Assembly (NCBI GenBank): GCA_052327205.1
Contig: CM126217.1
Location: 71,300,001 to 71,364,000, forward strand
Direction: 5' to 3'
Source of the DNA: Somniosus microcephalus
Taxonomy: Eukaryota
DNA: 64,000 nt
A program made the translations under genes and the position numbers. Below are positions 2,666 through 52,000 of this stretch, piece by piece. Each line of letters opens with the position of its first letter. Within the stretch, counting starts at the first letter, position 1. The notes beneath the pieces were generated by a model. It was given only the letters and a program-made list of their open reading frames with translations. It did not search any database and was not told where the DNA came from.

Positions 2666-4047
2666 CACTTCTGATATAAGTTCTGTGTTTGAGTGAGTGA
2701 GTGTAATTATACAATATTCTATAACACTTACTAAGATATATTTCTCTCCTTGTGTTAATTGTCCTAGCTCCTAAGTCCTCTCTATATATATTCATTATAG
2801 CTTTCTCATTGAGCTTTAATTTCACTCCTTGGTATTTTCTCCAGCTCTCCTATTTCTGCAGAGTCTTGAAGCAAATACAGTGACCAATCTCTGATTCATG
2901 GATTGAACTATAGGTTATGTTATAACATAACAAAGCTGTGCACAATGTGAACTAATAGCTAACACAGTTTTATGCACTGAATGCTGTACTCTTTGTGAAA
3001 TAAATGATTATTTTTTATCTGACATTCAGTAAAAAGATTAGATCAGAATGCATAGGGGAGCATAAAACAAAATAGTAAAATATTTTACAGGCACATCAAT
3101 AAAAAATGGAATGGGTATAGGGCCATTAAGGGATAGACAGGATAATACCACACGTAATGATAGAGAGATGGCAGAAATATTAAATAATTTTTTTGCTTCA
3201 GTATTTACCAGGGAGATAGAATAGGTGGACATGACATTAGATGATGAGATGAGTAATGACATAAATGCATTTAAAATAAAGAGGGAATATATTAAATAAA
3301 CTAATCAAACTCAAAGAGGATAAGACCCCTGGTCCAGATGGATTGCATCCACGCATTTTTAAAAAATCTAGTGAAGAGATAGCAGAGGCTTACTGCACAT
3401 ACTTAATAATTCGTTAGAAAAAGTTGTGTCTGAGGACTGGTGGATAGCTAATATAATACCTATATTTAAGAAGGGGGATAGAACATGTCCAGGGAATTAT
3501 AGACCAGTCAGTTTAACATCGGTGGTAGAAAAAATAACAGAATCCCTAATAAAGGAGAAAATAGAAGACCATCTAGAAACCAAAAACCTAGTAATGAATA
3601 GTCAGCATGGATTTCAAAAGGGAAAGTCATGCTTGACCAACCTCTGAATTTTTTGAAGAGGTAACAGAGTGAGTAGACAATGGTAATGTAGTAGATGTAA
3701 TTTATCTAGATTTTCAAATGGCCTTCGATAAGGTACCTCATAATATGAACAAGGTCAGACAATGCGGAGTCAGGGGACAAGTAGCAGAATGAATAGTTAG
3801 CTGGCTTCAAGACAGAAAGCAGAGAGTAGGAGTAAAGGGTAGCTATTCACAGTGGCAGAAGGTGGGAAGTGGTGTTCCACAAGGATCAGTGCTGGGACCA
3901 CTGTTGTTCACAATTTACATTAATGATTTAGAATTTGGAATCAAAAACACAATTTCTAAATTTGTGGATGATATCAAATTGGGGGAATAGTCAATACTGA
4001 GGAGGACTGCAACAAATTACAGGAGGACATTAATAAACTTGCAGAAT

Positions 4048-5465
4048 TGTAGGGGGTGGCGCGTGAGCCCAGTCAGTTATGCCTCTGACTGCCCGTGAGC
4101 AGTTCGAATCGCTCCCACGCCCCTGAGATTCTCGACACCGGACTTAGGTACAGGTAGCGATACAGAAAAGACTCGAGTAGACAGGTGGTTTGGGTGTAAG
4201 CAAGACTCAGGATTTTATTAAACAGGAAAAGCTAATACAGTCTTAAGAGAAGTTACCAGTATATAGAATTACAGGCAAATACAAATAACTATACTTATAC
4301 AGGGAATGGGGAACACACGGCACATCGAGGGAAAACAACGATCTTAACAATCCCCTTATCCTTATCCCACCCCCTATACCTAACTAGATTAAGCTATGAG
4401 GGGCCAGAATTTATGCTCACCAATCAAAAGGGTTTGTTGGACTCAAAACAGTGGTGGGGCTCGGGGTTCGCTCTTGGTGCTCTCTGGAGCCTGCCGTCAT
4501 CACGTGGTCTCCGGGTGCTGCAAGGGCGTTGTCCAGGTTCGAGTACCCCAAAATTAAAGTCTCTGTTTGGGTACTTTACCTTGCAGGGATGGATTCCTCT
4601 TCTTCGACCGACAGTTTGAGTTTGCATGAAGATAGTCGCAGGTTGGCTGAGGCTGAAGGCCCGATGATTCGAAGCCTACCCTCAGTTGGTCTCCTCAGTT
4701 GGTCTTCCTCAGTTGGTCTTCCCTCCTCCCCTCGTCGCGTCCCGCCTCGCCTGGCCTGAATTGTCCGTGTCCGCCCGATGCAGTGCCGGGGCGATTTCCA
4801 GATGGAGTGGCAAAAGGCACGGGCAAAGGCCAGGGGGTAAGCGCGGGATGGGGAAAGAGCGACAGCCACGAGGGCGAGGGGCAGAAGAGCCGAGCAGAGC
4901 AGAGAGCAAGATTGCTACCCGGGGCCTTCAATTATACTCTTTTCGAAAACCCTTATCTGCGTGCCAAATCAGGTTAGTTCTTTGCCTTAATCTTGGCGGG
5001 CTATTTTAAATAATGGTAGCAAGCTATACTAACTGTTTTTAGATGGCTGGTAATCGCATCTACCGGCCCGATAATTGACTTGTTTTGTTATGAATGTTCC
5101 TTGATGGGCCTGTCCAGCCTCAATGGCTTTCTTAATCTGTTGCTGATTATATATGTAAACTGCTTGATGGCCTTAACTATAGGCCTAACTGGATTTAGAT
5201 TTGTCTCCAATTCGATCGAATACATAATTCAAAGCCCTGTCTGGTTTCAAAATACAAAGTCTCTCTTCACAGAAACTGCAGCTTTGGTTTCGATTTTTCC
5301 ACAAGCTGCCTGCATTGCAGAGTCCAAGTTTTAAAATCTCACAGGCTTTCTGCCACGAGGCACGGACACCATCTTGGGTACCCTTTTTGATTTAAAATGC
5401 CCACGCAGGGTCCTGTTTATTAATAACAACCTTTGGGGAAATGTAGAAATTTTGCAAATTTTACA
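4048..5465 (-). repeat. 3' LTR of provirus (1418 bp)
   Basis: Direct repeat of 13227-15457 without the MITE. Minus-strand TATA-like box at ~4932-4938 and AATAAA at ~4214-4219. The PPT (cagggggg ag on minus) abuts it at 5466-5475. Confidence 0.95.
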
Positions 5466-5808: not shown

Positions 5809-7650
5809 TTAAACCGGCATATCTCCCTCCACCTTTACATAATGTTCCTTCCAAATCCTCTGGTTTCGGAATTCTGACCACCGACCTTTTCCCTTACACT
5901 GAATACAAACTAAATACAACACTATCCCTAACTGACAAACCACGAGAATGTGGGAAGCCAGTCTGATCCACGAAGGGACCTCTATGTTATTGAAAATGTT
6001 CCACCAGGGTGGAGTCACTATATTCAATATCTTAGTCCCTATCTCTACTGTTTTCTGTTCGAGAGTGTAAAAATGTTTCTGTGAAACTATAACGGCTTTG
6101 AGTATTTTAGTAAGGTGTTCAGGGAGAGGGGGAATTTCCTAGCCAAAGTGCGCTACGTACTTTTGCAAATTCGTAAAATTCTCCTTCACAGTGAGGTGAA
6201 CAGTGGAGGGTTCAGGAATGGGGACAATTCACTCCTGGGCCACTTGAACTTCTGCCTCGGGTTTAAAACAGAAACTGCTGTCACTAACCGGACACCAGCT
6301 ATGCTGTCCATACTGGTAGTGGGACGCGCCGGTTGTGACACAATATGTCCTACCCCCTATATATGCTACCTGCGGGGGAACATGGCCTTGTGTCATTGCC
6401 TCCATGGTGCAATTTATAGGCTTCGTGCCAGCAGCTCTGAACCCACACAGCGGTTTCGAATAGGCATTCAAGTGCTGGGGACACAGGATTATGTGTGCTC
6501 CCCGGCTCCGGCACCCTGAGAGGTCAATACCTGTCATAGCGTGCTCCCACTTTATGACGTAAGGTGGGACCGCTGTGAAACGAATGTGTGCACCCCCCTG
6601 AATGACTCCAATGTTCTCCACCCTGTATACCGGTGCGATCGAGCCGTCCTACACATGACTGGCATCCTAACTACTACTCCCATGATTGTGTGGTTGGACC
6701 GCCCACAATCCACAGGGACTGGGTAGGCTTCGGAGGCTACCGGAGTTGGCATGGGCTCAATGCATTCTCAAAAGGGTGGAGGGCTGCGAGGTGCTTGTTG
6801 CTAATCCAGGAGGGGACCAAACCCTGTTTTAAATCCTCCAGATTACTGCGGCCCTCGCCCAGTAACCACGCCCTGTATAACACGCACACCTCATTCTGCG
6901 CAGCCTAGTCAGAAGCATTTTTGTCCTCCCTTATGAGAGCATTTACCGTCTTTGCGTGCTTTTCCAACTCGGCTATGATCTCCTGTAAATGGACCGTCAT
7001 GGCCTGGTCCTCATGCAACTCCGAGCCCACTACCTTGTTCTCGTCCAGTAATATTTTCTTTAACTGTGTTTTTAAACCGTTTATCTGGGTCTGCAGCTCT
7101 ATGTCATCCAAGCTGTTGATGACAGAGGACCCAGTATTAAACGCAGTAAAAATATCATTCCATACACCCCTTCTTTGCCTCCCTGCATTACCCAAAAATT
7201 CTCGGTGTGTGGTGTACAGTTCGGTCTTGTCCACGTGGGCAAAATCGAACTCGTAAAACTTCTTGAACATGTCCTTTAATAGGGCCTGGTATAACTGCTC
7301 TGTTTCTTTGGGGCACCACTACGGTAAATGTACCTTGGTGAGATTTAAAATCACTGAGGCTACCGCGTAGTGTACCCCCTGGTACAGCATCTGAACGGTG
7401 GGGACTAATACCAACCCATTCCCTGGTCCCTTGGTGGCGGTGGGGCAACCTTCCCTGGATAACCTCGCCACCTGCGCCGTGGGCGGGGGCTTACGGGGGC
7501 GGGTTACCAGCTCAGTGGCATTGACTGGGATCGGGGAGAATGGGACTGCACACGCCTTCAGGCTGGTATCCCACCTCATCCCATCCCCTGCGTCTTGCCA
7601 CTGCCGGTGGAAAATAATGGATACGCCTGTGGGGCAGACCTTCTCTGACC
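5809..7650 (-). pseudogene. env: env, class I fusion glycoprotein similar to Mononegavirales F; 4 internal stops and 2 frameshifts
   Basis: GLVLVPTVQMLY..ILNL..P*WCPKETEQLYQALLKDMF (F2-like); furin site RQRR; fusion peptide GVWNDIFTAFNTG; heptad repeat; Cys-rich DLSGC..IILCP region; TM ASHILVVCQLGIVLYLVCI; tail ends 5809. The 5' boundary is approximate. Confidence 0.8.
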
Positions 7651-10600
7651 CCAACATATCCTCGGACCTTACCCCAACTGGCTGCTTTCCCCTTTCCGGT
7701 GTAAACAACTTACACTGGTTGATATGGAACCATTTTGTACGCCGGGGCATCTTCACGGCGTATACCATGGGGCTGGCTTTATCTACAATACTGTAGGGCC
7801 CCATGTATAATGGCTCCAAACTACCTACTCGGGCATAATTCCTCACCATAACCTGATCTCCTATTTCCCACTCATGGTGCTTTCTCGGTTCGAGCAGCAA
7901 TCGGTTACTCCGATGCTGCCTTCCCATGTTCCCAGCCGCCTGCTCATGGACCTGCTTCAGGTGCTCAAAGAGGTTTCGGGCAAGCCTGTCCCGGTTTACC
8001 TCCCTGAGCTGACCCTCCGTGAGCACCGGGGCTAGTACATGGGTGGGGGTCTGCATAACCCAGCCAGTCATTAGCTCGTACGGGGAATACCCCGTGCTTT
8101 TAGACTGGCTGGCCCGGATCCCCATCAAAACCAACGGTAGGACTTCGGCCCATTTACGGGGCGAGTCCGCCGTTTCCTTTCTTAACCTTTCTTTCAGGGT
8201 CCGATTCATGCGTTCTACAATCCCCGATGACTGGGGGTTGTGGGTTACGTGCCATTTCCCCTCAATGCTTAGCAGCATCAGGGTGTTCTGCATCACCTGT
8301 CCACTGAAGTGGGTCCCTTGGTCGGACTCCACAAACTGTGGTAGTCCCCACCTCGAGAACACTTCCCGGACTAGGATCCTGGCAGTACCCAGAGCTGTGG
8401 CAGTTCTGCAGGGAAAGGCTTCTACCCACTTGGTAAACACGTCCACCAGGACTAGGCAGTACTTATAGCCTCCCTGAGCAGTGGGCAGGGGCCCGATGTA
8501 GTCGACTTGTATCGACTGTCATGGTCCCTCTACCCTCTTGATGTGTCCCATAGGGGCCTTCCTTTTGTGGGTGTCAGGGTTGTTCGCAGCGCACACAAGA
8601 CAGCCTGCGCAGAACTCGCAGACATCGTCCCTGAGTCCCGGCCACCATCCCGCCTGTTCCAGCCGTTGCCAGGTGGTCTCAGGCCCAGGGTGTCCTGCTC
8701 CTGGACCCTCATGGGCCAGTTGAAGGAATTCCCTCTGGTGCTGCTGCGGCACAACCCACTGTTCCCCCCGGAACAGCATGCCCTCTTTAACGGAGACGGT
8801 CGCTGTGCCGTACGGACCTTCTACTCCTTTTCCCTCAGCTACAGCGCTGAGGACTGCTTTGAGGACGGGGTCTTGGGCTTGGACCGTCTTAAGGTCTGGG
8901 GCTAACGCTACCCCTACACTCCCTTGGGTCCCGTCCCTACCTCTGACCGCCGCCATGGGCCTGGACCCAAATGGGTCCCAGAAAATGCCTGCGCGGGCAC
9001 CCTCCTTGGCGAGCAAGTCAGCCTGCTGGTTGCCTTGGCCGCGGGGTTCTGTGGAGGAATGGGCTTTCACCTTGTGGATGAAAACCTCCCCTTCCTCCCC
9101 CACTGCTGCCAGGATCTTTTCCAGCAGGGGCTTTACTGTGAGGGGTCTCCCGTCAGCGGAGGTGTATCCGCGGCGGGACCAGATGGCCAGGTACTCCGTA
9201 CACGAATTGCACATAAACATGCTGTCTGAGCAAATTGTGTAGGGGGTGGGGAAGATTTCGGGGTGTGTAACAACGTACACCACCGCGGACAGTTCAGCCT
9301 GCTGGGCGCTCATGGTGCTGGGGAGCTTAATTGCCAGGGCAATGTTTGCCGCTGGGTCGTAAACTCCACACCCCGTGAGACGCTTGCCAGCAGATACCGT
9401 GCTGGAGCCGTCCACATAGATTTCGCGGCCTGTGGGATGTATCCCGGCCCATAAACCTATGTTTACTTCCCAAACCCCTTCAATGGAACACCGATGGGCT
9501 GTTCCAGGATATACCATGTTGGCTGCGAGCTTTGGCTCACAGAGACCCTTCACCTTCAGATCCATCTGTGAGAGGAGCAAGGTCCAGCGGGTAATGCGGG
9601 CACTGCTCACTGTCCCATCCTTGATCCTCCCGTCCAGAAGAATCTGGGTGGGTGTGTGATGGGTGAGGAGGGTGATGGGAGAGGTGCCTGTGAAGATCAA
9701 TGATCTTTTCACAGCCCAATGTGTGGCCAAAAGATGCCGCTCACAATTGGAATAGCTCCTTTCCACATCTGTGAGTATCCTGGAGGAGTAGACCACCGGC
9801 CGCAGCCGGCCGTGCCGCTCTTGGAGCAGCACAGCACTGAGGCTGTCTCCGCTGGCTGCTACCTCCAGGAAAAACTCTTTCCCCCCATCTATGGCCCCTA
9901 AAGCTGGCGCGGTCTGCAAGTCCTTCTTGAGCCTGACAAATGCTGCCTGGCAACCCTCATCCCAAAGCCACTCCACTCCCTTGTGTAGGAGTCGGAGCAG
10001 AGGGGCTGCGGTGGCTGCATAGTCCTCAATAAAGTTTCTACAGTACCCGGTCAGCCCCAGGAACGAACTCACACCCGTTACTGTGTTAGGGACTGGTAGT
10101 TCTTGTACTGCCTCCCTCCTAGCCTTATCTATGGCCCTTTCTCCAGCGCGCACGGTCAGACCGAGGAATTTCACCTCCTGCTGGCCGATCTGCGCTTTCC
10201 TGGGATTTACCTTGAAGCCCTTCTGTCCTAGCAGCTCCAGCAGTTCGGCCAATAGCGGGCCATGCTCCTCTTTCGAATCAGTGAACAGGAGCAGGTCATC
10301 TACATATTGAACCAACTGTCTGGGCTGGCTAAAATCCTTCAAACTGTCGGCCATGCACTGATGGAAAATGCTGGGGCTGTTGTGGAAGCCCTGTGGCAAA
10401 CAGTTCCACGTGTACTGTTGCCCTTTAAACGTAAAGGCAAACTTGTACTGATCCTCCCTCCTTAAAGGGATGGACCAAAACCCATTTGAAATATCCAGCA
10501 CCGTAAAAGTGGTTGCGGATGCGGGAATACTCCCAATGAGGTCGGCAACTGCTGCTACTGTGGGTGCGCAGGCTGGGATGTTGTTGCTATTGAGCACCCG

Positions 10601-11377
10601 ATAGTCCACCGTGGCCCTCCAGGAATTGTCCGGCTTTCTGACCGGCCATAACGGAGAAATCACGTGGGTAGCTATCGGTCTCAGAACTCCCTGCTGCACT
10701 AACGAGGACATGGCTGCTTCCATGTCCGGCTCTGCTTCCCTGGGGAAGTTATACTGTTTCTGTGGTCGGGCCATGGGGTCCCCGTCTACGCTGACCTCAA
10801 ACCCTGTGACCCTCCCGCAGTCGTGTTTGTGAGTGGCAAATGTGGCCAGGTGGGCCTGCACAAATGCCTGGAACTCTGGTGGGGTGTTGCTGACCATGAG
10901 CCCGAGGTTATAATCCTCTTTGGGCTTCATGGTGCAGAGGGTCCCCTTCCCTTCCTTTCCCGGGATTACTACGATCTCACCGTTCTTTACTGTACCTGCC
11001 CCCCAAAGGCAGTGATTCCTCAAATCCACTAGGATCCCGTGACCTACGATAAAGTCGGCCCCCAGGACCCCTCTTCCACCCTCCACGTCCCATTTCATCA
11101 GGACACACGTCCACTTAGAGCAGAGCGGTCCTATCCGAATGGTGAGCGGGATGGAAAACGAGCCGGCCTGTTCCCTACCCGTGTACCCCGATAGACTGTA
11201 TGGGACCCCTCTGGAGAGAGGTGAGGCGATGGGGTTAGCTGAGAAGACCACGGTGCATGGTGCCCCCGTGTCTAACAGATAGGTCCTCGTCACCTTCTCC
11301 ACCTCCATCTCCAAAAGGGGTCTTTTCCACTCATCATATCGGAGCGAACACAGATAAACAGGCTGCGCTGGCTCTAG
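7650..11377 (-). pseudogene. pol: pol: protease, RT, tether RNase H, RNase H, integrase; one internal stop (8519-8521)
   Basis: LLDTGA; LPQGF..YVDD; degenerate FLEVAAS RNase H; intact YVDGS..AQQAEL..SDS..GNQQAD RNase H; HHCC (H..H..CLVC); VDYIGP..SDQG..VERMN; GPY motif. Confidence 0.93.
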
Positions 11378-13152
11378 TCACAGCTGTGGGTTGGATGGGG
11401 CTGACGGAGTGATAGCACCAGTGGCGGCTGCTACTCTCCCCTGGCCAGTCAGTAAGGACCTCATGGCGTCCAAAAGTGACTCGACCTCTGCGGAAGGGGT
11501 CCCTGCCCCCGCCTTTTGGGCTGGGGCTGTGGGATGCTTTCCCTTGTTATCCTTCCAAGGGTGTTTGCACTCCTTCCGCCAGTGACCATCCTTTCCACAC
11601 CCGTAACAATTGGTCTTTGTGCTGGGGGGGTTACTCCCTTCCTGGTGCCACTCTTTCCTACCCGGTCCGGGTTTTATCTCATGCACCTTCCCCTTGGGTG
11701 GGTGTGCATCAGCTCCCCTACCATTTTTGTAAGCCAGAGTGAGCTGCCTAATTACCGTGATCTCTGTGGTCTGGGGATCTTTGGGGTTGAACCAGGCTTC
11801 TGCCTTGGCCCGGACCTGTGGCAGGCTGTTCGCCACCAGGCAATGGAGCCAATGGGCCAGGAGGTCCCTGTTCAGGAACACTCGGTCCGGCGTCCCCGGG
11901 CAGGCCCTCCGGTACACCGGCCACAGCCGGTCCGCAAAAGCCTTCGGGGTTTCCTCAGAAAGCTGGATCGTCTTCTCCAACTGGGAGAAGGGACTTCCCT
12001 CATCCATCCCCATGGCCTCCAGAACCGCATCTCTAAGGTCCTCGTACTCGCTCTGCCCCCTTTTACACTCGTCAGAGAGGGATTGGAGGAGATTACTCTC
12101 CAGGGAGAATAGCAGCATCTTGGCCTTCTCAGCGTCATCGCAGTCGTTGACGCTGGCGGTCTGCTCTATTTCCCTGAAGTGGATCGAGGGGTCTCCTTTT
12201 GCGGAAAGCTTCGGGATATGGTTGACCATAACCCTGAGCTGCTAGGTGTTAAAGGGTAACACGAACTGGTTTTGGAGGGGTCCCTCATTGTCACCATTGG
12301 CGGGTGGGCCGAACCTCTGATGCCGCGCTGGGCACATCGGTCTCGGCTCCGACCTCTCGGGCAGGGTTTGCTCTACCTCCGCCTCCACCTCTGGCTCCAC
12401 TTTGGGTTCCACCCCCGGTTCCACCCCGCCTTGCTGCCAAACCTCGCTGAAACTTGGCGCTACGGGTGGTGGCCGTGAGGTCTCCTCTCTCTCAACCGGG
12501 TTGTCCCTAAGCACTACCGGTGACGTTGGAACTGTCCTCCCCTTGTTCCCCATTAAATCTGCCTGACCTGCCTTTGGGCTTATGAGGCATACCATGCCTT
12601 TTGCCTTCCGGAGGGCCCGGCTCAGATTTTCTATCCTCTCTCTACAGGGGCCGTGATCTGCCTTCTCAAACCCCTGTTCACTTGTGAGCTTGTAAGCGGC
12701 TTTTACCTCCTGCACTTTCTCTTCCTGTTCCCTAATCTGCCTTGCCAAGCGGGCGTTTTTCTCCCGCAACCTTAACTCGTTTTCCTTGGCCTCGGTGACT
12801 TGGCACCGTAGGTATTCCAACTGGGCCTTGTGTTCTCCCACTAAATGCACTCTTTCCTGGTTTAAAGCCTGCAAAGATACTAATAAGTTCTCCCCTGCAA
12901 GAGCCTTATCCTGGATCTCCAGGGCTGACTCCCTTAACTCGACTGCCTATGCTGCAACGAGCCTGTCCAAAAGCTGGACCTGCTTTTTAAAGCACATCAG
13001 CCAAACTGCCTTCTCTAAGGACTTCATGTGTTCCTTTCCCTCTGTCCACTTAGCTGCTGCATCTACCGATGCCCAGCCTTTAACAGAGTGGTGATCCACT
13101 TCTTAGTGATATTCACCTTGCTAAACACATAATCAGAAATCCTTTCCTCCAT
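11378..13152 (-). pseudogene. gag: gag with N-terminal coiled coil, capsid-like region and one CCHC knuckle
   Basis: ATG at 13152; one frameshift and two stops; heptad-rich 12242-12874; CYGCGKDGHWRKEC; ends TGA at 11378-11380. Confidence 0.88.
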
Positions 13153-13205
13153 CAAGGTTTGCTCATCTGAACCATTGTCTACTGTATCGCAACCCTGTTG
13201 CCGGG

Positions 13206-13223
13206 GTCCTGCCGCGGTCGCCA
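13206..13223 (-). promoter_or_regulatory. Primer binding site, tRNA-Arg(TCG)
   Basis: The + strand GTCCTGCCGCGGTCGCCA matches the 3' 18 nt of vertebrate tRNA-Arg-TCG as I recall it; it lies 3 nt from the 5' LTR. Confidence 0.85.
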
Positions 13224-13226
13224 TTA

Positions 13227-15457
13227 TGTAGGGGGTGGCGCGTGGGCCCTGTCAGTTATGCCTCTGACTGCCCGTGAGCAGTTCGAATCGCTCCCACGCC
13301 CCTGAGATTCTCGACACCGGACTTAGGTACAGGTAGTGATATAGAAAAGACTCGAGTAGACTGGTGGTTTGGATGTAAGCAAAACTCAAGATTTTATTAA
13401 ACAGAAAAATTAACACAGTCTTATGAGAAGCTACCAGTATATAAAATTACAGGCAAATACAAATAACTATACTTATACAGGGAATGGGGAATACATGGCA
13501 CATCGAGGGAAAACAACTATCTTAACAATCCCCTTATCCTTATCCCACCCCCTATACCTAACTAGATTAAGCTATGAGGGGCCAGAATTTATGCTCACCA
13601 ATCAAAAGGGTTTGTTGGACTCAAAACAGCGGTGGGGTTCGGGGTTCGCTGTTGGTGCTCTCTGGAGCCTGCCGTCGTCACGTGGTCTCCGGGTGCTGCA
13701 AGGGCGTTGTCCAGGTTCGAGTACTTTACCTTGCAGGGATGATTCCTCTTCTTCGGCCGACAGTTTGAGTTTGCATGAAGATAGTCGCAGGTTGGCTGAG
13801 GCTGAAGGCCTGATGATTCAAAGCCTACCCTCAGTTGGTCTCCTCAGTTGGTCTTCCTCAGTTGGTCTTCCTCAGTTGGTCTGCCCTCCTCCCCTCGTCG
13901 CGTCTCGCCTCGCCTGGCCTGAATTGTCCATGTCTGCCCGATGCAGTGCCAGGGTGATTTCCAGATGGAGTGGCAAAAGGCACGAGCAAAGGCCAGGGGG
14001 TAAGCGCGGGACAGGGAAAGAACGACAGCCATGAGAGCGAGGGGCAGAAGAGCCGAGCAGAGCAGAGAGCGAGATTGCTACCCGGGGCCTTCAATTATAC
14101 TCTTTTCGAAAACCCTTATCTGTGCGCCAAATCAGGTTAGTTCTTTGTCTTAATCTTGGCGGGCTATTTTAAATAATGGTAGCAATCTATACTAACTGTT
14201 TTTAGATGGCCGGTAATCGCATCTACCGGCCCGATAACTGACTTGTTTTGTTATGAATGTTCCTTGATGGGCCTGTCCAGCCTAGATGGCTTTCTTAATC
14301 TGTTGCCGATTATATATGTAAACTGTTTGATGGCCTTAACTATAGACCTAACTGGATTTAGATTTGTCTCCAATTCAATCTAATACATAATTCAAAGTCC
14401 TGTCTGGTTTCAGAATACAAAGGGCTAGATTTTCCTGGACCCGTCAGGCGGGGTTTCAGTCGTGTGGGGGGGGAAATCCCGAATTTGGGGGGCCCGACAC
14501 CATCCCGCCCAAAACCCCGCCCCACGTAAGTTTTAGGGGCAGCAGGTACCCGCCCCGCACTGGGACCCGCTGAAACCAGGCGGGAAGGGATTAGTGCCAA
14601 TTAACTGCCCAACAGGCAGCTTTTAGCCTAATCCCTATTTTGAGGGGTTTCATGTGGGTTTCCCGACGGCTCCAAACCATGCCAGGTTAGAGCAGGCGGG
14701 CCGTCGGGTTGAAGGAGTTGGAGGGGTCGCGATGTCGGCGCTCAGGTGAGTGATGAGTGCATGAGTGTAAAGGTAAGTGTGTTTGGTGTGTCTAAAGTGT
14801 GTAAAGAACTTTTACTTACCTGTACTTACCTTAACAGCCTTTCTTCCTGGAGCTGTCGGGAGCCCATCACTCAGCTGGCACTTAAAGCTGAATGGCTGCG
14901 ATCTGTGAAAAGTGACAGCCTTCAGCTTTGAGTGCCGGTAAGAGTTCTAACTGAGTCTGTGCAGAAGGACTCATGTCAGAACTCAGACTGTCAGTGTTTC
15001 ACAGCTTCAAACAGCTGTCAAACACTGATATTTCATCTGTCAAGAACTCTTGACAGATGAAATTGCAGTCTGTGACGTCACCTGTTGCCGGGTGGCCCTT
15101 AATTGGCCTGCTGAGCCCGCTGGACGGGCTCAACAAGGTCAATCAAGGGAAAATCGCGTGGATTGGCCGGACGTCGATGTAGGCGGGTCAAAAACCCGAA
15201 AGGGGAAGTCCCGCCTTCTTCCCGACAGGTTTGGGAAAATCTACCTCAAAGTCTCTCTTCACAGAAACTGCAGCTTTGGTTTCGATTTCTCCACAAGCTG
15301 CCTGCGTTGCAGAGTCCAAGTTTTAAAATCTCACAGGCTTTCTGCCACGAGGCACGGACGCCATCTTGGGTACCCTTTTTGATTTAAAATGTCCACGCAG
15401 GGTCCCGTTTATTAATAACAACCTTCGGGGAAATGTAGAAATGTTGCAAATCTTACA
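13227..15457 (-). repeat. 5' LTR of provirus, interrupted by a MITE
   Basis: Colinear with 4048-5465 apart from substitutions, a ~28-bp indel, 4 vs 3 copies of ctcagttggtct(t)c and the MITE. Confidence 0.95.
14422..15247. mobile_element. Harbinger-type MITE inserted in the 5' LTR
   Basis: 14-bp imperfect TIR gggctagattttcc / ggaaaatctacctc; 3-bp TSD AAA; the empty site is visible in the 3' LTR (tacaaagtctc). Confidence 0.9.
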
Positions 15458-17115
15458 GAATGGGCATATCATTGGCAAATGAAGTTCAACACAGATAAAT
15501 GTGAGGTCTAACATTTTGGTAGGAAGAATAGGGAGGTCACTTATTACTTGGAGGATGCAAGTCCAGGTGGGTTGAGGAACAAAGGGATCTCGGAGTACAA
15601 ATACACAAATCACTAGAAGTTGCGACACAGGTTAGCAAGGCCATAAAAAAGCAAACCAAGCACTACGGTTTATTTCTAGAGATATAGAATTGAAAAGTAG
15701 GGAAGTTATGCTAAACCTGTATCGAACCTTGGTTAGACTACACTTAGAGCACTGCGTACAGTTCTGGTCGCCATATTGTAAAAAGGATATAGAGGCACTG
15801 GAGAGGGTGCAGAGAAGATTTACAAGGATGATACCAGAAATGTGAGGGTATACATATCAGGGAAGGATGAACAGGCTGGGTCTCTTTTCTCTTGAAAAAA
15901 GAAGGCCGAGGAGTGACCTAATAGATGTCTTTAAAATTATGAAAGGTTTTGATAACGTGGATACAGAGAGAATGTTTCCACTTGTGGGGAAGAGCATAAC
16001 TAGAGGCCATCAATATAAGATAGTCGCCAAGAAATCCAATAGGGAACTCAGAAGAAACTTCTTTACCCAAAGAGTGGTGAGAATGTGGAATTCGCCACCA
16101 CAGGGAGTGGTTGAAGCGAAAAGAATAGATGCATTTAGGGGAGACTAGACAAGCATATGAGGGAAAAGGGGAATAGAGGGTTATGCTGATAGATTTAGAT
16201 GAAGAAAGACGGGAGAAGGCTCGAGTGGCATAAATGCCGGCATGGGCTGGCTAGGCTGAATGGCCTGTTTCTGTGCCGTATATCCTATGTAACCCTATGT
16301 AAAGGTTTGGGGAAGCCTAATTTCTGATTCAAATTCGCAACCAGCAACTGTGTCACTTCATCTTTCATGCTACTGCACCAGTTATTCATCAAAAGAAACC
16401 ACCTACTGTGCACAAACTGCTTATGCTAACAGGTTGAAAGAAGATGCGCCCACTTATGGAAGCTGAGTGTTGATTTGAATAAGACAGCTCATAAGGCAAC
16501 TTGCTTAGTAATATCAGAAGTAGTGGGGGAACAGATCATGTCCATATAAAAATCATTTTGTAAAAATGTGTTACTCAGAGTAAAACTGTAGTGGACTTGA
16601 TATCTGTTGACTACTGTTGCAATATTTTTATTAGCAGGCTGCTCTATTAACAATCAAGCCTTACAATCAGAATTCTATCAACAGATATTCTTAATAGCAG
16701 TGGGGCAACACAACAAGCAGCAAGGCTTCACCATATAGCGATGAAAGATCCTACCCATCTCTATAAAGTAGTTGTCCACTGCTTTCAGGTAAGTGGAAAT
16801 ATTGACTTTGAAATTACCTTACTGTGTCAGTATAACAATAAGAATGAATTAGTGCCATGAACCAGATGATGGGAGGCTGTTCTGTGTATTAATTACATAA
16901 AATACAGTTTTTTTTGGAGGTTGAGGTTATTCTATATATGATCCAATATTAAAGGGTTTGAATGTACTGAACGATAACATGCTTTGTAGAGGCTGATCAC
17001 TTTTTGCAGATTTATAGAAAAGATGTATGGAAAATAACAAGAACTTTGTATGTCCATAGCATACAGAAAACAAGAATGAGCAAAATTTTGTATTTTAGTG
17101 GCCCACAGAAATATT

Positions 17116-42149: not shown

Positions 42150-45100
42150 CGTTACAAACAGTTCCCATGGATTGGCGGGTAGCTAATGTTACCCCATTAT
42201 TCAAAAAAGGTGGTAGAGAGAAAACGGGGCATTATAGACCGGTAAGCCTGACATCGGTAGTGGGGAAAATGCTAGAGTGTAGGAATGCCTAGTCCCTATC
42301 CAAAAGACTGAGGTCCACTCAGGCGATCAAATCAACGAGGTTTAATAAAAAGTAACAGAGTTTAACAGCTAACTACAGGAGAACATCGAATATAGGTCTA
42401 GTCAGTTCGGAGGCTCCACGAGGACTGCTAGGGCGGTCCCATGGCTGACGTCATGACGTCATCACGTTTTTCCCGCCGGTGGGGGATCACGTGATGAACG
42501 GCGTGACGTCATCGCGTTTGCCCGCGCTATTAAAGTGATCGCGCTCTGTACATGTAAACAGTGAAAATAAGATACAGACTCAGGCTGCAGCCAACATATT
42601 ATTAAAGGGAATTATATACAATTGATTGGAGCCCCTTAGTGGCTCCACCACATGTGCCCCCCCAGAATTGTCCTTAATAGCAAAAGTAAAATGGCGAGAA
42701 GGCCTGACAAGCCTGTCAGATCGACTTCTGTAGCCTTGAAGTGGAAGCTGATGGATGGCGGGCGAGCTGGCGGGCAGTTGCTTTTGATCTGGCACAGCGA
42801 CTGTGGGCGGTCGGCCACGTTTCGGCAGTTGTGCGATCTCGACTGGGCGGTCAAGGTCCAAGTGAGCAAGCTTCAACCGGTCAACCGAAATGTGGTCCGG
42901 TTTACTTCCAACATCGACTGAAAAAGATTTGTCTCCCGGCTCTATCACACGGAAAGGACCAGTGTAAGGGGGTTTGAGCGGGTCCCGATGAGCGTCGCGG
43001 CGGATAAACACATAGTCGGCGTTCTTCAGCTCAGCTGGGACGTGGGAGCTTTGCAAGCCGTGATGCGACGTAGGCACTGGAGTGAAACTTCTGGCTGCCT
43101 CCTGGTGGCTGATGAGCTACTGGGACGCGGACCATGGCTTTGTTGGAGATGGAAGGAAATCCCCTGGTACGCGTAGCGGCTGGCCATACACGTGCTCCGC
43201 CGAGGACGATTGAAGATCTTCTTTAGGTGCCATACGAAGACCCAAAAGGACCCATGGAAGCCTGTCCACCCAGCCCGCGCCTTGAAGGCTGGCTCGCAGT
43301 GCGGCTTTGAGCGACCTGTGGAATTGTTCGCACAGGCCGTTCACCTGTGGATGGTAGGCAGTGGTGCGATGTAGCTTGACGCCGAGCCCCTGAGCCACAG
43401 CGTTCCAGAGCTCCGAAGAGAACTGCGGCCCACGATCGGACGAGATGTCTGCCGGTACCCCGAAGCGGGCGACCCAAGAGGAGATGAATGCCCTGGCGAT
43501 GTCTGCGGGAGTGGTGGAAGACAGAGGAACCGCCTCCGGCCATCGAGTGGTGCGGTCCACCATTGTAAGAAGATGAGTAAACCCGTGCGAAGGCGGAAGT
43601 GGCCCCACCAGGTCCACATGCACATGATCAAACCGACGTTCCGGAACGGCAAAACTGGCCAATGGAGCCTTAACATGACGCTGTACCTTGGCCTTTTGGC
43701 AGACCACGCAGGTGTTGGCCCAGTCGCGAACATCCATGTGCATGCCCTGCCACACGAATTTGGACGACATCAACCATTGCGAGGCCTTCATGCCAGGGTG
43801 CGACAACCCGTGTATGGCGTCAAAAACTTTTCAGCGCCAGGCGACCGGGATGATAGGGCGAGGATCTCCTACGGAGACGTCGCAGAGTAGCGTAGTGCCC
43901 GCGGCATGGAATTTGACGTCAGCCGCTTGGAGGCTAGAGGGGTTGGTTCTGTAAGATTGGACCTCCGGATCCGAGGCTTGACCCGCAGCCATGAGGGCAT
44001 AGTCGATGCCGAGCTGGACTGCATGAACGGTTGCGCGGGAGAGGCAATCCGACACCAGGTTGTCCTTACCGGACACATGCTGAATGTCAGTGGTGAATTC
44101 TGAGATAAACGTCAGCTGACGTTGTTGCCGAGCTGACCACGGTTCGGCGGTCTTGGCCATAGTGAACGTTAGTGGCTTATGGTCCACAAAAGCCGTGAAC
44201 GGACGTCCTTCTAGCAAGAACCGGAAATGGCGGATGGCCAGAAAAAGGCCCAGCAACTCCCGGTCAAACGTGCTGTACTTTCGTTCGTTTCGCCGCAGTT
44301 GACGGCTGAAAAACGCCAGCGGTTGCCACGTCCCATGCACCCACTGTTCCTGCACTGCGCCGATGGCGTAGTCTGACGTGTCGGTGGTAAGGGCAATGGT
44401 GGCACCTGGCAGCGGGTGTGCCAGCATGGTTGCATTGGCTAAAGCGCCTTTTGTGTCGACGAACGCCCGGTCCATTTCGACCGTCCAGCTGATCGGATCC
44501 TTGCCGGACTTGCCCTTGAGGGCCTCGTACAGGGGCTGCATGAGCCGAGCTGCATTAGGGACGAACTGGTGATAAAAATTTACCATCCCGAGGAACTCCT
44601 GCAGGGCTTTGACGGACTGCGGGCGCGGGAACGAAGTAACTGCCTCCACCTTCATTTGCAGGGGAATTGTGCCGTCTGATGTGATGCGATGGCCTAAAAA
44701 ATCAATCTGCTGCAGGCCGAACTGGCACTTGGCCGGGTTGATGAGGGTGCGCAAATGGCAGATGTGCTCTTTATTAGGGCTGGCGATGAGGATGTCGTCG
44801 AGGTAGACGAATAGAAACTTGAGGTCGCGAAGTACGGAGTCCATCAAGCGCTGGAAAGCCTGTGCAGCATTCTTCAATCCAAACGGCATCCGCAGAAATT
44901 CAAACAAGCCGAATGGGGTGATGACTGCAGTTTTCAGGACATCTTGCGGGTGTACGGGGACCTGGTGGTAGCCACGGACAAGGTCGACTTTTGAAAAAAT
45001 GGTATTTCCCGCCAAATGTGCAGAGAAATCCTGAATATGAGGGATCGGGTACCGATCAGGAGTAGTGGCATTGTTCAGGCGTTAGTAGTCGCCGCAAGGC

Positions 45101-48100
45101 CGCCATCCGCCGCCGGGTTTCGGAACAATGTGGAGAGGCGAAGACCAGGGACTATTCAACCGGCGAATAATCCCTAGCCGCTCCATCGTGTCGAACTCCG
45201 CTTTCGCAGGCGCGAGCTTGCCAGGTTCGAGGTGCCGGGCCCCTGCGTAGACCGGGGAGCCAGTAGTGGTGATGTGATGTTCGACACCATGTTTCGTGGC
45301 CGTGGAAGAGAAAGTGGGTCTGGTCAGGTCTGGGAACTCTCCGAGGAGGCGAGTGAAGTCATCCGGAGGTGGGGACATGCAGGAGACAGTGCGCGCCACG
45401 GTGTTACCGCGGTCGCACGGGATGGAGTGAAAAGTGGCCGCATTGATCAACCGGCGGTGCCGTACATCCACCAGGAGGCTGTTGGTGCACAAAAAATCCG
45501 CCCGAGGATGGCTTGAGAGACTTTGGCCGTGATGAAATCCCAGTAAAACCGCTGGCCGCCGAAGCACACCTGGACCCGCCGGCTTCTGAAGGTTCGAATG
45601 GCCCCGCCATTAGCCGCCTGGAGGGAGGGGCCGTGCCCCCCAACTTGTAGATCAAGATTGGACGCGGGTAGGATGCTACACTGCGCCCCGGTGTCGCAAA
45701 GGAAACGTCGACCAGATAGGGAATCGTTGATGAAGAGGAGTTTTCCCGAATTACCGATTGCCATCGCAGCCGCGGGGCGCTCGTTATAACCGGTCCTCCT
45801 TCGACAGGGTGGCTGCTGGGTTTTTTTGAGCGAAAAGCTGCAGGGAGTGCGGCAGCATCTTGCTTTCGCGCCAAAACGGGCATGGTAGATGCACAACCCC
45901 GCAGGTTGAGGGACTGGAGCAGCGTCTGTGGGGGATGGGCGCCTCGTGGCAGCGCAGCACTGCTGTGTCACCGCGAAGATCTTGTCTGCATCGGCAGCCA
46001 GCTCTGCGCAGTCGGTGACTTCCGACCTGGCTAGGGCAGCTTGAACTTGCTCCGGAAGCTGGCTGAGGAATAGCTCCCTGAAGAGGAAGCATTCCGGTTT
46101 GGAGCCCAGGAGCGTGAGCATTTGGCTCATGAGCTCGGATGGCTTGGAGTCCCCGAGGCCGGGCAGATTGAGCAGCCGGCGGGCGCACGCCGACTTCATG
46201 AGCCCGAAGACCTGTAACAACCGCGCCTTTATCGTATCATACTTGCGGTCCTCTGGTGGATTACCAAGCAGGCTGACGATCTGCGAGGCTGTGGCGCTGT
46301 CGAGGGCGGAGACCACGTGATAATAACGGGTCTGATCCGCAACGATGTTCCTGATGGCGAACTGGGCTTCAGCCTGGATGAACCACGCGGCTGGCTGTTG
46401 CTCCCAGAACTGTGGTAGCTTTAAAGCAAAGGCGTTCGATTCCATGTTCGGTAACTTTTGCGCAAACCGTTCGCAAAAGTCGGGGTCACCAATGTAGGAA
46501 TGTCTAGTTCCTATCCAATAGGTCCACTCAGGCAATCAAATCAACGAGGTTTAATGAAAAGTAACAGAGTTTAACAGATAACTACAGGAGAACATCGAAT
46601 ATAGGTCTAGTCAGTTCGGAGGCTCCACGAGGACTGCTAGGGCGGTCCCATGGCTGACGTCATGACGTCATCACATTTTTCCCACCGGTGGGGGATCACG
46701 TGATGAACGGCGTGACGTCATCGCGTTTGCCCGCGCTATTAAAGTGATCGCGCTCTGTACATGTAAACAGTGAAAACAAAGGTACAGACTCAGGCTGCAG
46801 CCAACATATTATTAAAGGGAATTATATACAATTGATTGGAGTCCCTTAGTGGCTCCGCCACAAGAGTCCATTATAAAAGATGTAATAGCAGAGCACTTGG
46901 AAAACAGTGACAGGATCGGACAAAGTCAACATGGATTTACAAAAGGTAAATCATGCTTGACTAATCTACTGGAATTTTTTGAGGATGTAACTGGTAGAAT
47001 AGATAAGGGAGAACCAGTGGATGTGGTGTATTTGGACTTTCAAAAGGCCCCGCATAAGAGATTAGCGTGTAAAGTTCAGGCACATGGGATTGGGGGCAAG
47101 ATACTGACTTGGATAGAGAACTGGTTGGCAGACAGGAAGCAAAGAGTTGGAATAAACGGGTCTTTTTCCGAGTGGCAGGCAGTGACTAGTGGGGTACCGC
47201 AAGGATCGGTCCTAGGACCCCAGCTATTCACAATATATATTAATGATCTAGATGAGGGAACTAGATGTAATATCTCCAAGTTTGCAGATGACACAAAGCT
47301 GGGTGGGCGTGTATGCTGTGAGGAGGATGCCGAGAAACTCCAGTATGATTTGGACAGGTTGGTGATTGGGCAGATGCATGGCAGATGCAGTATAATGTGG
47401 ATAAATGCGAGGTTATCCACTTTGGTGGCAAAAACAGGAAGGCAGATTATTATCTGAACGGCAATAGATTGGGAGAAGGGGAAGTGCAACGAGACCTGGG
47501 TGTTTTTGTGCACCAGTCGCTGAAGGTAAGCATGCAGGTGCAGCAGGTGGTTAAGAAGGCAAATGGTATGTTGGCCTTCGTAGCGAGAGGGTTCGAGTAC
47601 AGGAACAAGGATTTCTTGCTGCAGTTGTACAGGGCCTTGGTGAGACCACACCTTGAGTATTGTGTGCAGTTTTGGTCACCTTATCTGAGGAAGGATGTTC
47701 TTGCCATGGAGGGAGTGCAGCGAAGATTCACCAGACTGATACCTGGGATGGCAGGAATGACGTTTCAGGAGAGATTGGATCAATTGGGCTTATACTCGCT
47801 GGAGTTTAGAAGAATGAGAGGGGATCTCATTGAAACTTATAAAATTCTAACAGGACTAGACAAACTAGATGCAGGAAGGATGTTCCTGATGGCTGGGGAG
47901 TCCAGAATCAGGGGTCACAGTCTAAGGATAAGGGGTAAGCCATTTAGGACAGAGATGAGGAGGAATTTCTTCACCCAGAGAGTGGTGAACCTGTGGAATT
48001 CTCTACCACAGAAGGCAGTTGAGGCCAATTCATTAAATATATTCAAGAAGGAGTTAGATATATTTCTTAAGGCTAAAGGGATATGGGGAGAAAGCAGGGA

Positions 48101-49021: not shown

Positions 49022-52000
49022 TGTAATGTCCGTGTGTAATTGAGACACGGACTGCAGAAGTTGGTTATAACAGGTGTTTACTGAATGGAGACAAAACTGG
49101 AACTATTATACAAAGTTACTACACAGGCTTATATACAGGGGTGGTCACTACTGGTACTGCAGTATACAGGGGCTGCAGAATATAGTTCCTTCTTCAAGGT
49201 ACATACACTACAATTCCACCCCTTTTAGCTAAACAGTACATAACATTCGATTAATAATTAAATAACATATTTACAATTACAGTTGCTATATACATTAGCT
49301 GAAGTTAATCAATTATAAATTCAGTCTTTGAGGAGGCTTCCTGATTCTGTCCGGATAACGCCTGTTTCGGGTATCAGGTTCTTCTGGCAAAGTTGATTCG
49401 GGATCAACGTCATTGTTTGGTTCGTCTGCTTCCAATATCACCGATTTCTGAGGTAGATGCAATTGGTACTTCGGTTTCATCACCAGGTGTATAGGATCGT
49501 GGTGTAGATTTGACGTTTTCCAGTGACTCTAGAATCTGGTCAGCATGGCGTCTTACAATGCTCTCTCCAACGTCCATGGTATACATTAGAGGTCCTTGCC
49601 GTGTGCAGATCGTTCCTGGCTGCCATTTCTCTGTGCAGTAGTCCCAGGCCAAAACTGGTTGACCTATCTTGAAACTCCTGGTTGGCCTTTCATTCATATT
49701 CTGAAACTGCCTGTTCTCCACATCTCTTCTGATGTTTGGCTTAACCAAATCCAAGCGGCATCTTAGTCTTCGATTGAAGAACATCATGGCTGGAGTTTGG
49801 TTGGTAACCGCATGTGTCGCTTTCCGGTAGGCAAACAAGAAGTTATCCACCTTGTGTTGTAGGGGTATGTCTTAATTACACATTGCCTTGATAGCCTTCT
49901 TGAATGTTTGAACGAACCTCTCAGCCAATCCATTGATGGGTGGATGATATGGGGCGGATGTGTAATGCTTAACCCAATTGTTCTTTAAGAACCTCCGGAA
50001 CTCTTCAGACACAAACTGTGGTCCATTGTCGGAGCAAATCTGTTCAGGCAGCCCATTTCTGGCAAATATGGTTCGTAAGACTGTGATAGTTTTTTCTGTG
50101 GTAGTTGAGGACATTTTTATTACCTCTGGCCACTTTGAATGTGCATCCACCGCAATTAAAAACATCGAGTCCATAAATGGACCAGCAAAATCAATGTGCA
50201 CCCTTTGCCATGGAGATGAGGGCCACTCCCATGGATGTAGAGGGGCTTGTGGTGGGGCGTTTTGGACCTTCTGGCATCCTGTACAGCTCTTGGTCATCTC
50301 TTCGATTTCTCTATCGATTCCCGGCCACCACACAAACGCTCTGGCTAAGTTTTTCATTTTTACCCCTCCCAGATGACCCTCATGAAGCTCATTGAGCACT
50401 CTATCCTTCAATTTGGGTGGAATTACTACTCTGGATCCACACATCACGGTACCTCGGCACACTGACAGCTGTTCTCTTCTCGGCGAGAATGCTGGCAACA
50501 GTGGTTCACCATGTGCTGGCCATCCCTTCACCGTTAAATCATAGACCCTGGAGAGTGCCGGGTCATTTCGTGTTTCCTTTTCTATGTTTGCATTCGTCAC
50601 AGGTAAACATTCGACTATGGTCGAGTGGAATATCTCCACAGGATCCACTGCAGGTGCTTCTTCCACCGTCGGCAACGGTAGGCGCGACAATCCATCAGCA
50701 TTCCCATGCTGTTTAGTTCCTTTGTACTCGATGTCATATTGGTGTGCCCCTAGGAAAAGGGACCACCTCTGTAGCCGTTGTGCTGTCATTATCGGGACGC
50801 CCTTCTTAGGGTTGAAAATGGAGACAAGAGGTTGATGATCAGTTAGTAGAGTAAATTTCTGTCCGTGCAGGTAGTGATTGAACTTCTTCACCCCCCACAC
50901 CAGGCTGAGGGCCTCTCTGTCAATCTGGGCATAGTTACGCTCGGCTGCAGTTAACGAGCGTGACGCAAAAGCTATCGGCCTCTCTGAACCATCAAGGGAT
51001 TTATGTGACAGTACCGCTCCAGCGCCGTAGGGAGACGCATCACACACCAGTCTTATCGGCAGTGATGGGTTGTAGTGAGCCAATACTTCTCTTGAAGTGA
51101 TCAGGCCTTTACACTTCTGAAAGGCCCGCTTACATTCATCGCTCCATTTCCATGCTACTCCAGTTTGTAGCAGGGTGTTCAGTGGGTGCAGAATTGTGGA
51201 AAAATTCAGCAAAAACTTATGGTAGTAATTCACCAATCCGAGGAATGACCTCAGTTGCGACACATTTTCAGGCGCTGGAGCCTTAACTACCGCTTTAATT
51301 TTGTCAGGGGACTTATGTAACCCCTCTTCATCAATCACGTGGCCACAATACGATATTTGTTTCTTTAAAAACTCGCACTTGGGGCGATTGGCTCGTAGCC
51401 CATGTTCTCTTAGTCTAGTGAGCACCTGCTCTAGGTTGGCAAGGTGTTCACTGTCATTTTCACCTGTCACTAGGATGTCGTCCAAGTAACACTGAGTCCC
51501 CGGAATCCCTAGCAGGACTTGTTCCATCGCTCTTTGCCATATAGCCGGAGCTGATGCTACTCCGAATACCAGTCGATTATACTGGTAAAGACCTTTGTGA
51601 GTGTTTATCGTGAGATATTTCCTAGAGGATTCTTCAACCTCCATCTGCAAATATGCTTGCGCTAGGTCAATTTTTGTAAAACGTTTCCCTCCAGATAGTG
51701 AGGCGAAAATATCTTCTATCCTCGGAAGAGGATACTATACTGTGTGAAGGACTGGGTTCACAGTCACCTTGAAGTCCCCACAGATGCGAACCTTCCTTGG
51801 CTCCTCAGACTTATTGTTTAACGTTTTCTTCATGACAGGAACGATGGGTGTCGCCCACTTGCTCCAGTCTACCTTAGATAACACGCCTGCATTCTCCAGA
51901 TTCTCCAGCTCTGCCTCGACGGCTGGGCGAATTGCATACGGTACCGGTCTTGCTTTGAAAAACTTGGGAATTGCATCCTCTTCTATTTTTATCGAGGCGG

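Follow-up and report, generated by a model that had tools for sequence, protein, structure and literature searches.

The gag-pol junction of a decayed elasmobranch endogenous retrovirus is very probably a site of alphavirus-type (type II) UGA readthrough, and we lean slightly towards a form of readthrough in which a predicted RNA stem 3' of the stop has a role. The element lies in the window, by which we mean the whole 64-kb stretch of DNA analysed here. A sequence-only reading of this DNA had proposed that the lineage makes Gag-Pol by UGA readthrough. This proposal is supported, as the probable mode of expression, by an inherited stop, an in-frame pol, a protease that begins upstream of the first ATG and a predicted hairpin.

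The provirus and its gag-pol junction

A full provirus runs from 15457 to 4048 on the minus strand, with two LTRs, a target duplication and a primer-binding site. The 5' LTR lies at 13227..15457 and the 3' LTR at 4048..5465 (both minus). The two are 92.2% identical over 1226 columns and 96.2% over 211, and about 0.8 kb of the 5' LTR (14423-15246) is missing in the 3' LTR. The target duplication has 4 bases and lies at 4044-4047 and 15458-15461. The primer-binding site (13207..13223, minus) resembles that of CmiERV lineage I and is presumably one for tRNA-Ser. At 13820-13880 (minus) the LTR contains a 15-base unit with a GAAGACCAACTGAG core, three to four times in tandem, and its number of copies is not the same in the two LTRs. 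The U5 end (13265-13300, minus) has a stretch with a GTTCGAAT core in reverse complement, and we take this reverse complement to resemble a tRNA T-arm. ARAGORN called no tRNA genes in the 64-kb window.

Gag (11381..13180, minus), delimited by its frame and a CCHC knuckle, is decayed and its start position is uncertain. Its N-terminal half appears coiled-coil-like by eye, its zinc knuckle matches Pfam zf-CCHC with an E of 0.015, under the curated cut-off, and its frame has stops at 13165, 13135, 13123, 13105, 12949 and 12244. Pol (7690..11377, minus, 3' end approximate) contains, in order, a protease with DTG at codon 36 after the stop, an RT (YVDD), an RNase H-like tether, RNase H and integrase, and carries one stop at 8521-8519. 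The tether and second RNase H (PF17917/PF17919, then PF00075) are shared with all retroviruses. An env-like gene in pieces (5809..7690, minus) has an RQRR cleavage-like site and a transmembrane-like end. At 7600-7760 (minus) the integrase frame continues stop-free into env-like sequence; this run-on is probably a deletion in this copy, because additional N-terminal sequence is present at the integrase/env joint in the skate relative P0243. The gag-pol frame, from 13180 to 6905, holds 10 stops in total. With such decay a single copy proves nothing, and decay as the origin of the TGA was checked separately.

Other elements lie elsewhere in the window. Two Gypsy-type LTR elements (42311-46779 and 49022-54142, minus) have mostly open gag-pol frames and direct repeats that are 98-99% alike. 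A non-LTR RT frame of 605 codons with a C-terminal C2H2 finger lies at 58452-60269 (minus), and many further non-LTR fragments are presumably CR1/L2-like.

The gag stop codon TGA (11378..11380, minus) is in frame with pol and is followed by CTAG (11374..11377, minus), so that the first pol codon is CTA (Leu). The minus strand at the junction is CCA CAG CTG TGA CTA GAG CCA, with CTG TGA CTA GAG at 11383-11372. Downstream of the TGA the pol frame runs for 952 codons without a stop (11377-8519, minus) from protease through RT and RNase H to integrase, and the post-stop translation is LEPAQPVYLCSLRYDEWKRPLLEME...LLDTGA. Both the letters and the translation confirm the earlier description of a TGA (11380-11378, minus), then CTAG and an open in-frame path to LLDTGA. 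The TGACTAG heptamer itself is common by chance, with seven occurrences in the 64-kb window against 7.28 expected; it is its placement at the gag end that is beyond chance. Within 7.7 kb of the element there are 10 CTAG sites, or 0.0013 per position (0.0038 from base composition). Among the nine in-frame stops with a listed 3' context only one, the gag-end TGA, has CTA directly 3' of it.

The junction has two features of type II readthrough, a UGA in frame between two coding regions and a CUA directly 3' of the stop. Type III (gammaretroviral) readthrough is marked by UAG and a G-rich 8-nt spacer, and the junction has UGA-CUAG instead. Two XXXYYYZ-like heptamers (11520 and 11319) were considered for frameshifting and rejected, since frameshifting is superfluous where gag and pol frames agree. 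Another TGACTAG, at 6905-6911, does not fall in the env frame and was set aside as chance.

Relatives and known readthrough systems

The RT tree contained 45 rows selected from 120, none of them named SnRV, and six Loki rows were labelled by the RT motif from the Loki supplement and not by name. The window RT falls within Retroviridae. Its group there has 32 rows (99/92) and also includes feline foamy virus and WEHV1 relatives. A three-row clade with feline foamy virus (99/96) leaves it out, and it also lies outside the WEHV1 group and outside a bird/caecilian YIDD group, whose rows we take to be ERV-L/S-like. A 13-row group of frog, coelacanth and window sequences had an SH-aLRT of 95 in one RT tree and collapses in the 45-row tree. 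On its RT, the element appears to belong to an unresolved basal grade of Retroviridae. Classification as a lokiretrovirus was rejected, since uniting its group with the six Loki-motif rows gave a p-AU of 0.009. Among named Pol proteins, gene models of frog and coelacanth come closest, at 43-46% identity. The term SnRV-like expresses a likeness only, drawn from the available parts of PMC4422223 (CmiERV lineage I) and PMC4977317.

The env relatives are skate and sawshark proteins with 65-73% identity (three hits among 1146 candidates), and for this reason the family is, judged by its env, elasmobranch. Env had no Pfam or PDB match, and leads from the Atlas were 0.91 (Fusion_gly on 23% of members) and 0.88 (Baculo_F), with low recognition. 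Env looks F-type, and a relation to Mononegavirales F is a lead only. The env of CmiERV lineage I has a motif that we take to be the gamma-type immunosuppressive domain. Given an F-type-looking env with a Retroviridae RT here and a gamma-type env in CmiERV, exchange of env among deep aquatic retroviruses is possible.

CmiERV lineage I of the elephant shark, which clusters with SnRV, is similar to the window element by eye in its primer site, its coiled-coil CCHC gag and its RT motifs. Between its knuckle and protease motif it has a single in-frame TGA, then CAT (supplement of PMC4422223, in the part available, by eye). It differs from the window element in having CAT and not CTA after the TGA, and in a gamma-type and not F-type-looking env.

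UGA at the end of gag has been recorded in other retroviruses. In the parts of a review that were available (PMC13517186), UGA gag stops are given for SSSV (UGAAGA), ZFERV (UGACGA) and the toad ERV RMEV (UGAAGU), and XtERV-S has an in-frame TGA between gag and pol (PMC8278194). In these four, as in the window element, a UGA divides gag from pol within a shared frame, and readthrough is presumed. They differ from the window element in that no downstream structure is given for them and they belong to other RT clades; the contexts of SSSV, ZFERV and RMEV, moreover, are not UGA-CUA. The retroviral contexts in the accessible parts of the review are UAG-G, UAGGGC, UGAAGA, UGACGA and UGAAGU, with UGA-CUA absent, and a word search of these parts did not find 'loki' (PMC13517186). 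There, retroviral readthrough is described as verified only in gammaretroviruses, and the cis signals of the fish and frog viruses as unknown. MoMLV, WDSV and SnRV (UAGGGC) have their stop past the CCHC knuckle and before DTG, as the window element has (PMC13517186), but gammaretroviruses and epsilonretroviruses use UAG, a purine-rich spacer and a pseudoknot, in contrast to the UGA-CUAG and predicted rod of the window.

The alphavirus nsP3-nsP4 opal codon (SINV, VEEV; type II) shares UGA-CUA with the window junction and has an extended 3' stem-loop, as is predicted here. Stem-loops of 126-177 nt increase alphavirus readthrough 3- to 9.5-fold, the alphavirus polymerase is a C-terminal extension past the stop, as the window pol would be, and alphaviruses have CGA variants at the same site (PMC13517186, in part), as the lokiretrovirus Pfl does. 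The window differs from alphaviruses in its gag-pol setting and in a predicted continuous rod of about 220 nt in place of two short arms 101-154 nt apart. In fission yeast, the Gypsy elements Tj1, Tcry1 and Tosmo1-3 separate gag from pol by an in-frame TGA that is followed by CTA or CTG; this has been interpreted as programmed readthrough, and the stop is essential in Tj1 (PMC10085805, in part). Unlike the window element, these are Metaviridae without env and without a tether domain. The gag-UGA-pol junction of Tca2 alone failed to direct readthrough in a yeast reporter (PMC2194720, in part), and UGA-CUAG is a validated human readthrough motif (10.64898/2026.07.14.738498, in part).

In the literature searched (few subscription papers; no Repbase), no paper was found that describes readthrough at UGA-CUA for retroviruses or for lokiretroviruses. 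TGACTA is absent from the Odin supplement, which seems to consist of protein alignments and tables. The accessible parts of PMC8310308, PMC12440569, PMC4131045, PMC12193657 and 10.1101/2023.10.26.564294 contain nothing on such a junction, nor do those of PMC9040795, where a word search found neither readthrough nor stop codon. The sequence-only reading had held the mode to be undescribed for this lineage. This stands, within the literature searched, for UGA-CUA(G) together with a long predicted hairpin in retroviruses, but not for UGA junctions as such, in view of SSSV, ZFERV, the toad ERV and XtERV-S.

The lokiretroviruses were compared through a search of the 24 consensus entries in the supplement of PMC7947760. 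In ten, the label gives gag and pol as one frame, and 14 have a separate pol. Among the 14, all seven inspected junctions with a gag stop have TGA-CTA, in the form TGA-CTAG-G in Ofa, Cne, Pyo and Sau and TGA-CTA-A in Bsp, Dcl and Lro. By eye, the annotated pol or its protease motif shares the frame of the junction in six of the seven; in Bsp a conserved leader frame is held for about 50 codons, and then the consensus slips. Tfu has X-L-S at the site, known from protein only, Ape and Lch start at or just before pol, and Aro, Bpe, Lca and Rca are outside the inspected junctions. A TGACTAG at the start of Lch is out of the pol frame and was set aside as chance. Pfl, the only fused entry inspected, reads CGA-CTA at the corresponding position. 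In Ofa, Pyo, Sau, Bsp and Pfl a hairpin of about 70 nt was seen by eye, with its start near +7. In the seven TGA-CTA entries the annotation places the start of pol at a later ATG, CTG or TTG, and a word search of the available parts of the main text found no mention of a stop codon or readthrough (PMC7947760). The same parts give no cartilaginous fish among the hosts. Lokiretroviruses resemble the window element in the tether and RNase H, in an F-like env lead and, in seven entries, in TGA-CTA; they differ in that the window RT is outside the Loki-motif clade and the window has a CCHC knuckle.

Inheritance of the stop, start of the protease and predicted hairpin

Four runs from three organisms, two of contigs and two of RNA reads, were aligned to 10900-12400 at 80% likeness, and the in-frame stop at 12244-12242 served as a control for decay. 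This control stop differs in 98.8-100% of the depth in both contig runs, where depth is not equal to copy number. The two RNA runs show a difference there in 28-33 of 29-33 reads. The control stop is a private decay of this copy. At 11374-11381 (TGA-CTAG and the base before it) no difference was among the 40 listed of 638 in the four runs, a sample in which minority sense codons are still possible. At position 11382, where coverage is 88 and 33 contigs, most of the depth differs in each of the two contig runs. One subfamily (21 contigs) has a changed gag end that still runs into TGA-CTA, as seen in the loose ends of the alignment, and for two divergent gag ends (4 contigs; 18 RNA reads) the match stops at 11380; both of these are open in frame, by eye, as far as the stop. 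Because the control stop is private while TGA-CTAG is not listed as variable, and because divergent gag ends meet there, the gag-end TGA is shown, within the limits of this sample, to be inherited and not a product of decay. The check that the sequence-only reading had proposed, conservation of TGACTAG across copies, came out in its favour to the extent that the 40 of 638 listed differences include none at the site and 21 contigs keep TGA-CTA. As for relatives' DNA, the viral contigs yielded none and the metagenomes two distant, uninformative loci, and no gag homologues were found at near lengths.

The protease bears on where Pol starts. The first in-frame ATG after the stop is codon 24 (11308), and codons 16-23 align with HIV-1 protease residues 5-12 (WKRPL), with a best E of 1e-4 for tethered dimers and weak matches for single chains. 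A protease model from 37 sequences has strands at residues 7-11 and 20-26, with a pLDDT of 78-97 for the block; a single-sequence model (pLDDT 32) was uninformative. RT matches filled the listing of the fold search, which hence has no bearing on the protease. Since the WKRPL strand (codons 16-23) precedes codon 24, the protease is shown to begin upstream of the first ATG, and initiation at that ATG would cut its N-terminus.

It is highly improbable that the TGA arose by decay within a single fused gag-pol frame, or became fixed early, when non-autonomous copies multiplied in a burst. The copy has 10 in-frame stops, 10 of 24 lokiretrovirus entries are labelled fused, one with CGA-CTA at the matching site (PMC7947760, in part), and the coelacanth gene model P0005, known from protein alone, passes from gag to protease unbroken. 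Such an origin is opposed by the private control stop next to a gag-end TGA that is not among the 40 of 638 listed differences, by the divergent gag ends that meet at the TGA, and by the position of the TGA, which is where gag ends in CmiERV. CTAG would also stand behind a random stop with a chance of only about 0.001-0.004. That the stop is inherited but Pol is made apart from Gag, in a foamy-like manner on a message that is spliced or starts internally and has an AUG of its own, is improbable as well, if less so. An in-frame ATG (11308) and a weak AG (11385-11384) are present, several database proteins of the clade begin at Met near DTG, though these are automatic gene calls, and the Tca2 junction contains a minor promoter (PMC2194720, in part). 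The ATG, however, sits within the protease, past the WKRPL strand, and the AG lies upstream of the stop, so that a splice there would retain it. No GT-AG joint was listed in the two RNA runs, which cover 10900-12400 at a depth of tens of reads. A separate Pol would need neither the shared gag/pol frame nor the CUA context, and the window RT falls outside the foamy clade.

Readthrough of an inherited UGA remains our preferred reading, and behind this stop RNA folding predicts an unbranched hairpin (11156..11374, minus) that spans +7 to +225 from the U of UGA with 83-86 pairs. In a fold of 230 nt it forms one unbranched stem of -102.7 kcal/mol (z -4.27, 0/200 shuffles). Pair probabilities are mostly >0.9 from +18 to +95 and only 0.55-0.68 at +7 to +16, and the firm part of the predicted hairpin begins at +18. 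None of 300 synonymous resamples reached its energy or length. With 83 pairs it is the longest rod in a scan of the element by 498 windows, where the next two have 67 and 64, and it is outside the 15 lowest window energies. Other strong folding occurs in the element, with 5 of 69 coarse windows at z <= -4.5, and pol has two further long predicted unbranched stems, at 8240-8429 and 9894-10064 (minus; 67 and 64 pairs). Folding of 60-150 nt downstream gave z of -0.37 to 1.62, no better than shuffles, and the rod appears only with 200-250 nt folded. The 100-150 nt proposed in the sequence-only reading therefore miss the structure. Rfam gave five weak matches (E 1.8-4.5), all well under gathering scores.

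A doubtful but real possibility is that readthrough, common to both views, rests on UGA-CUAG alone, and that the hairpin is an unrelated genome structure, for instance for packaging, dimer formation or protection from nonsense-mediated decay, or an artefact of prediction. Eleven listed differences fall inside the hairpin; three are unpaired, four keep a pair, one adds a pair and three break a pair unless the partner base differs too (from the 40 of 638 listed differences). These pair changes are about what transitions give by chance, and together with the other long stems in pol (67 and 64 pairs) and a CHIKV downstream structure that has no confirmed effect (PMC13517186, in part) they speak for an unrelated hairpin. 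On the other side, the longest rod of the element begins four bases behind the stop, and lokiretrovirus junctions show, by eye, hairpins of about 70 nt that start at +7 to +13.

Gag-Pol control in deep retrovirus lineages

In an active ancestor, most ribosomes would stop at the UGA and release Gag. In the weak UGA-CUAG context eRF1 would compete poorly, and the predicted stem, starting four bases behind the stop, may further favour a near-cognate tRNA, so that a few percent of ribosomes would insert an amino acid at the UGA and make Gag-Pol. Neither the mechanism nor readthrough between gag and pol is new; UGA junctions had been recorded from fish and frog retroviruses, and UGA-CU from yeast retrotransposons. 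New, within the literature searched, is the probable use of the alphavirus-type form by a basal family of retroviruses and, so far unremarked, by lokiretroviruses.

We consider it unlikely, yet worth stating, that UGA-CUA with a 3' hairpin is an overlooked ancient control of the Gag:Gag-Pol ratio at the base of the retrovirus tree, present in the elasmobranch family and in many members of the sister group, the lokiretroviruses, with lineages switching between UGA and a sense codon as alphaviruses do. If this were true, the classic genera would have acquired their UAG-pseudoknot and frameshift signals later, as replacements. Because similar junctions occur in unrelated retrotransposons, convergence between the window element and the lokiretroviruses is likelier than common descent.

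The junction is a concrete, testable candidate for a retroviral readthrough signal of another type than the gammaretroviral one. It would add two deep lineages to the users of type II readthrough, would correct gene annotation and would bear on the evolution of Gag-Pol control.
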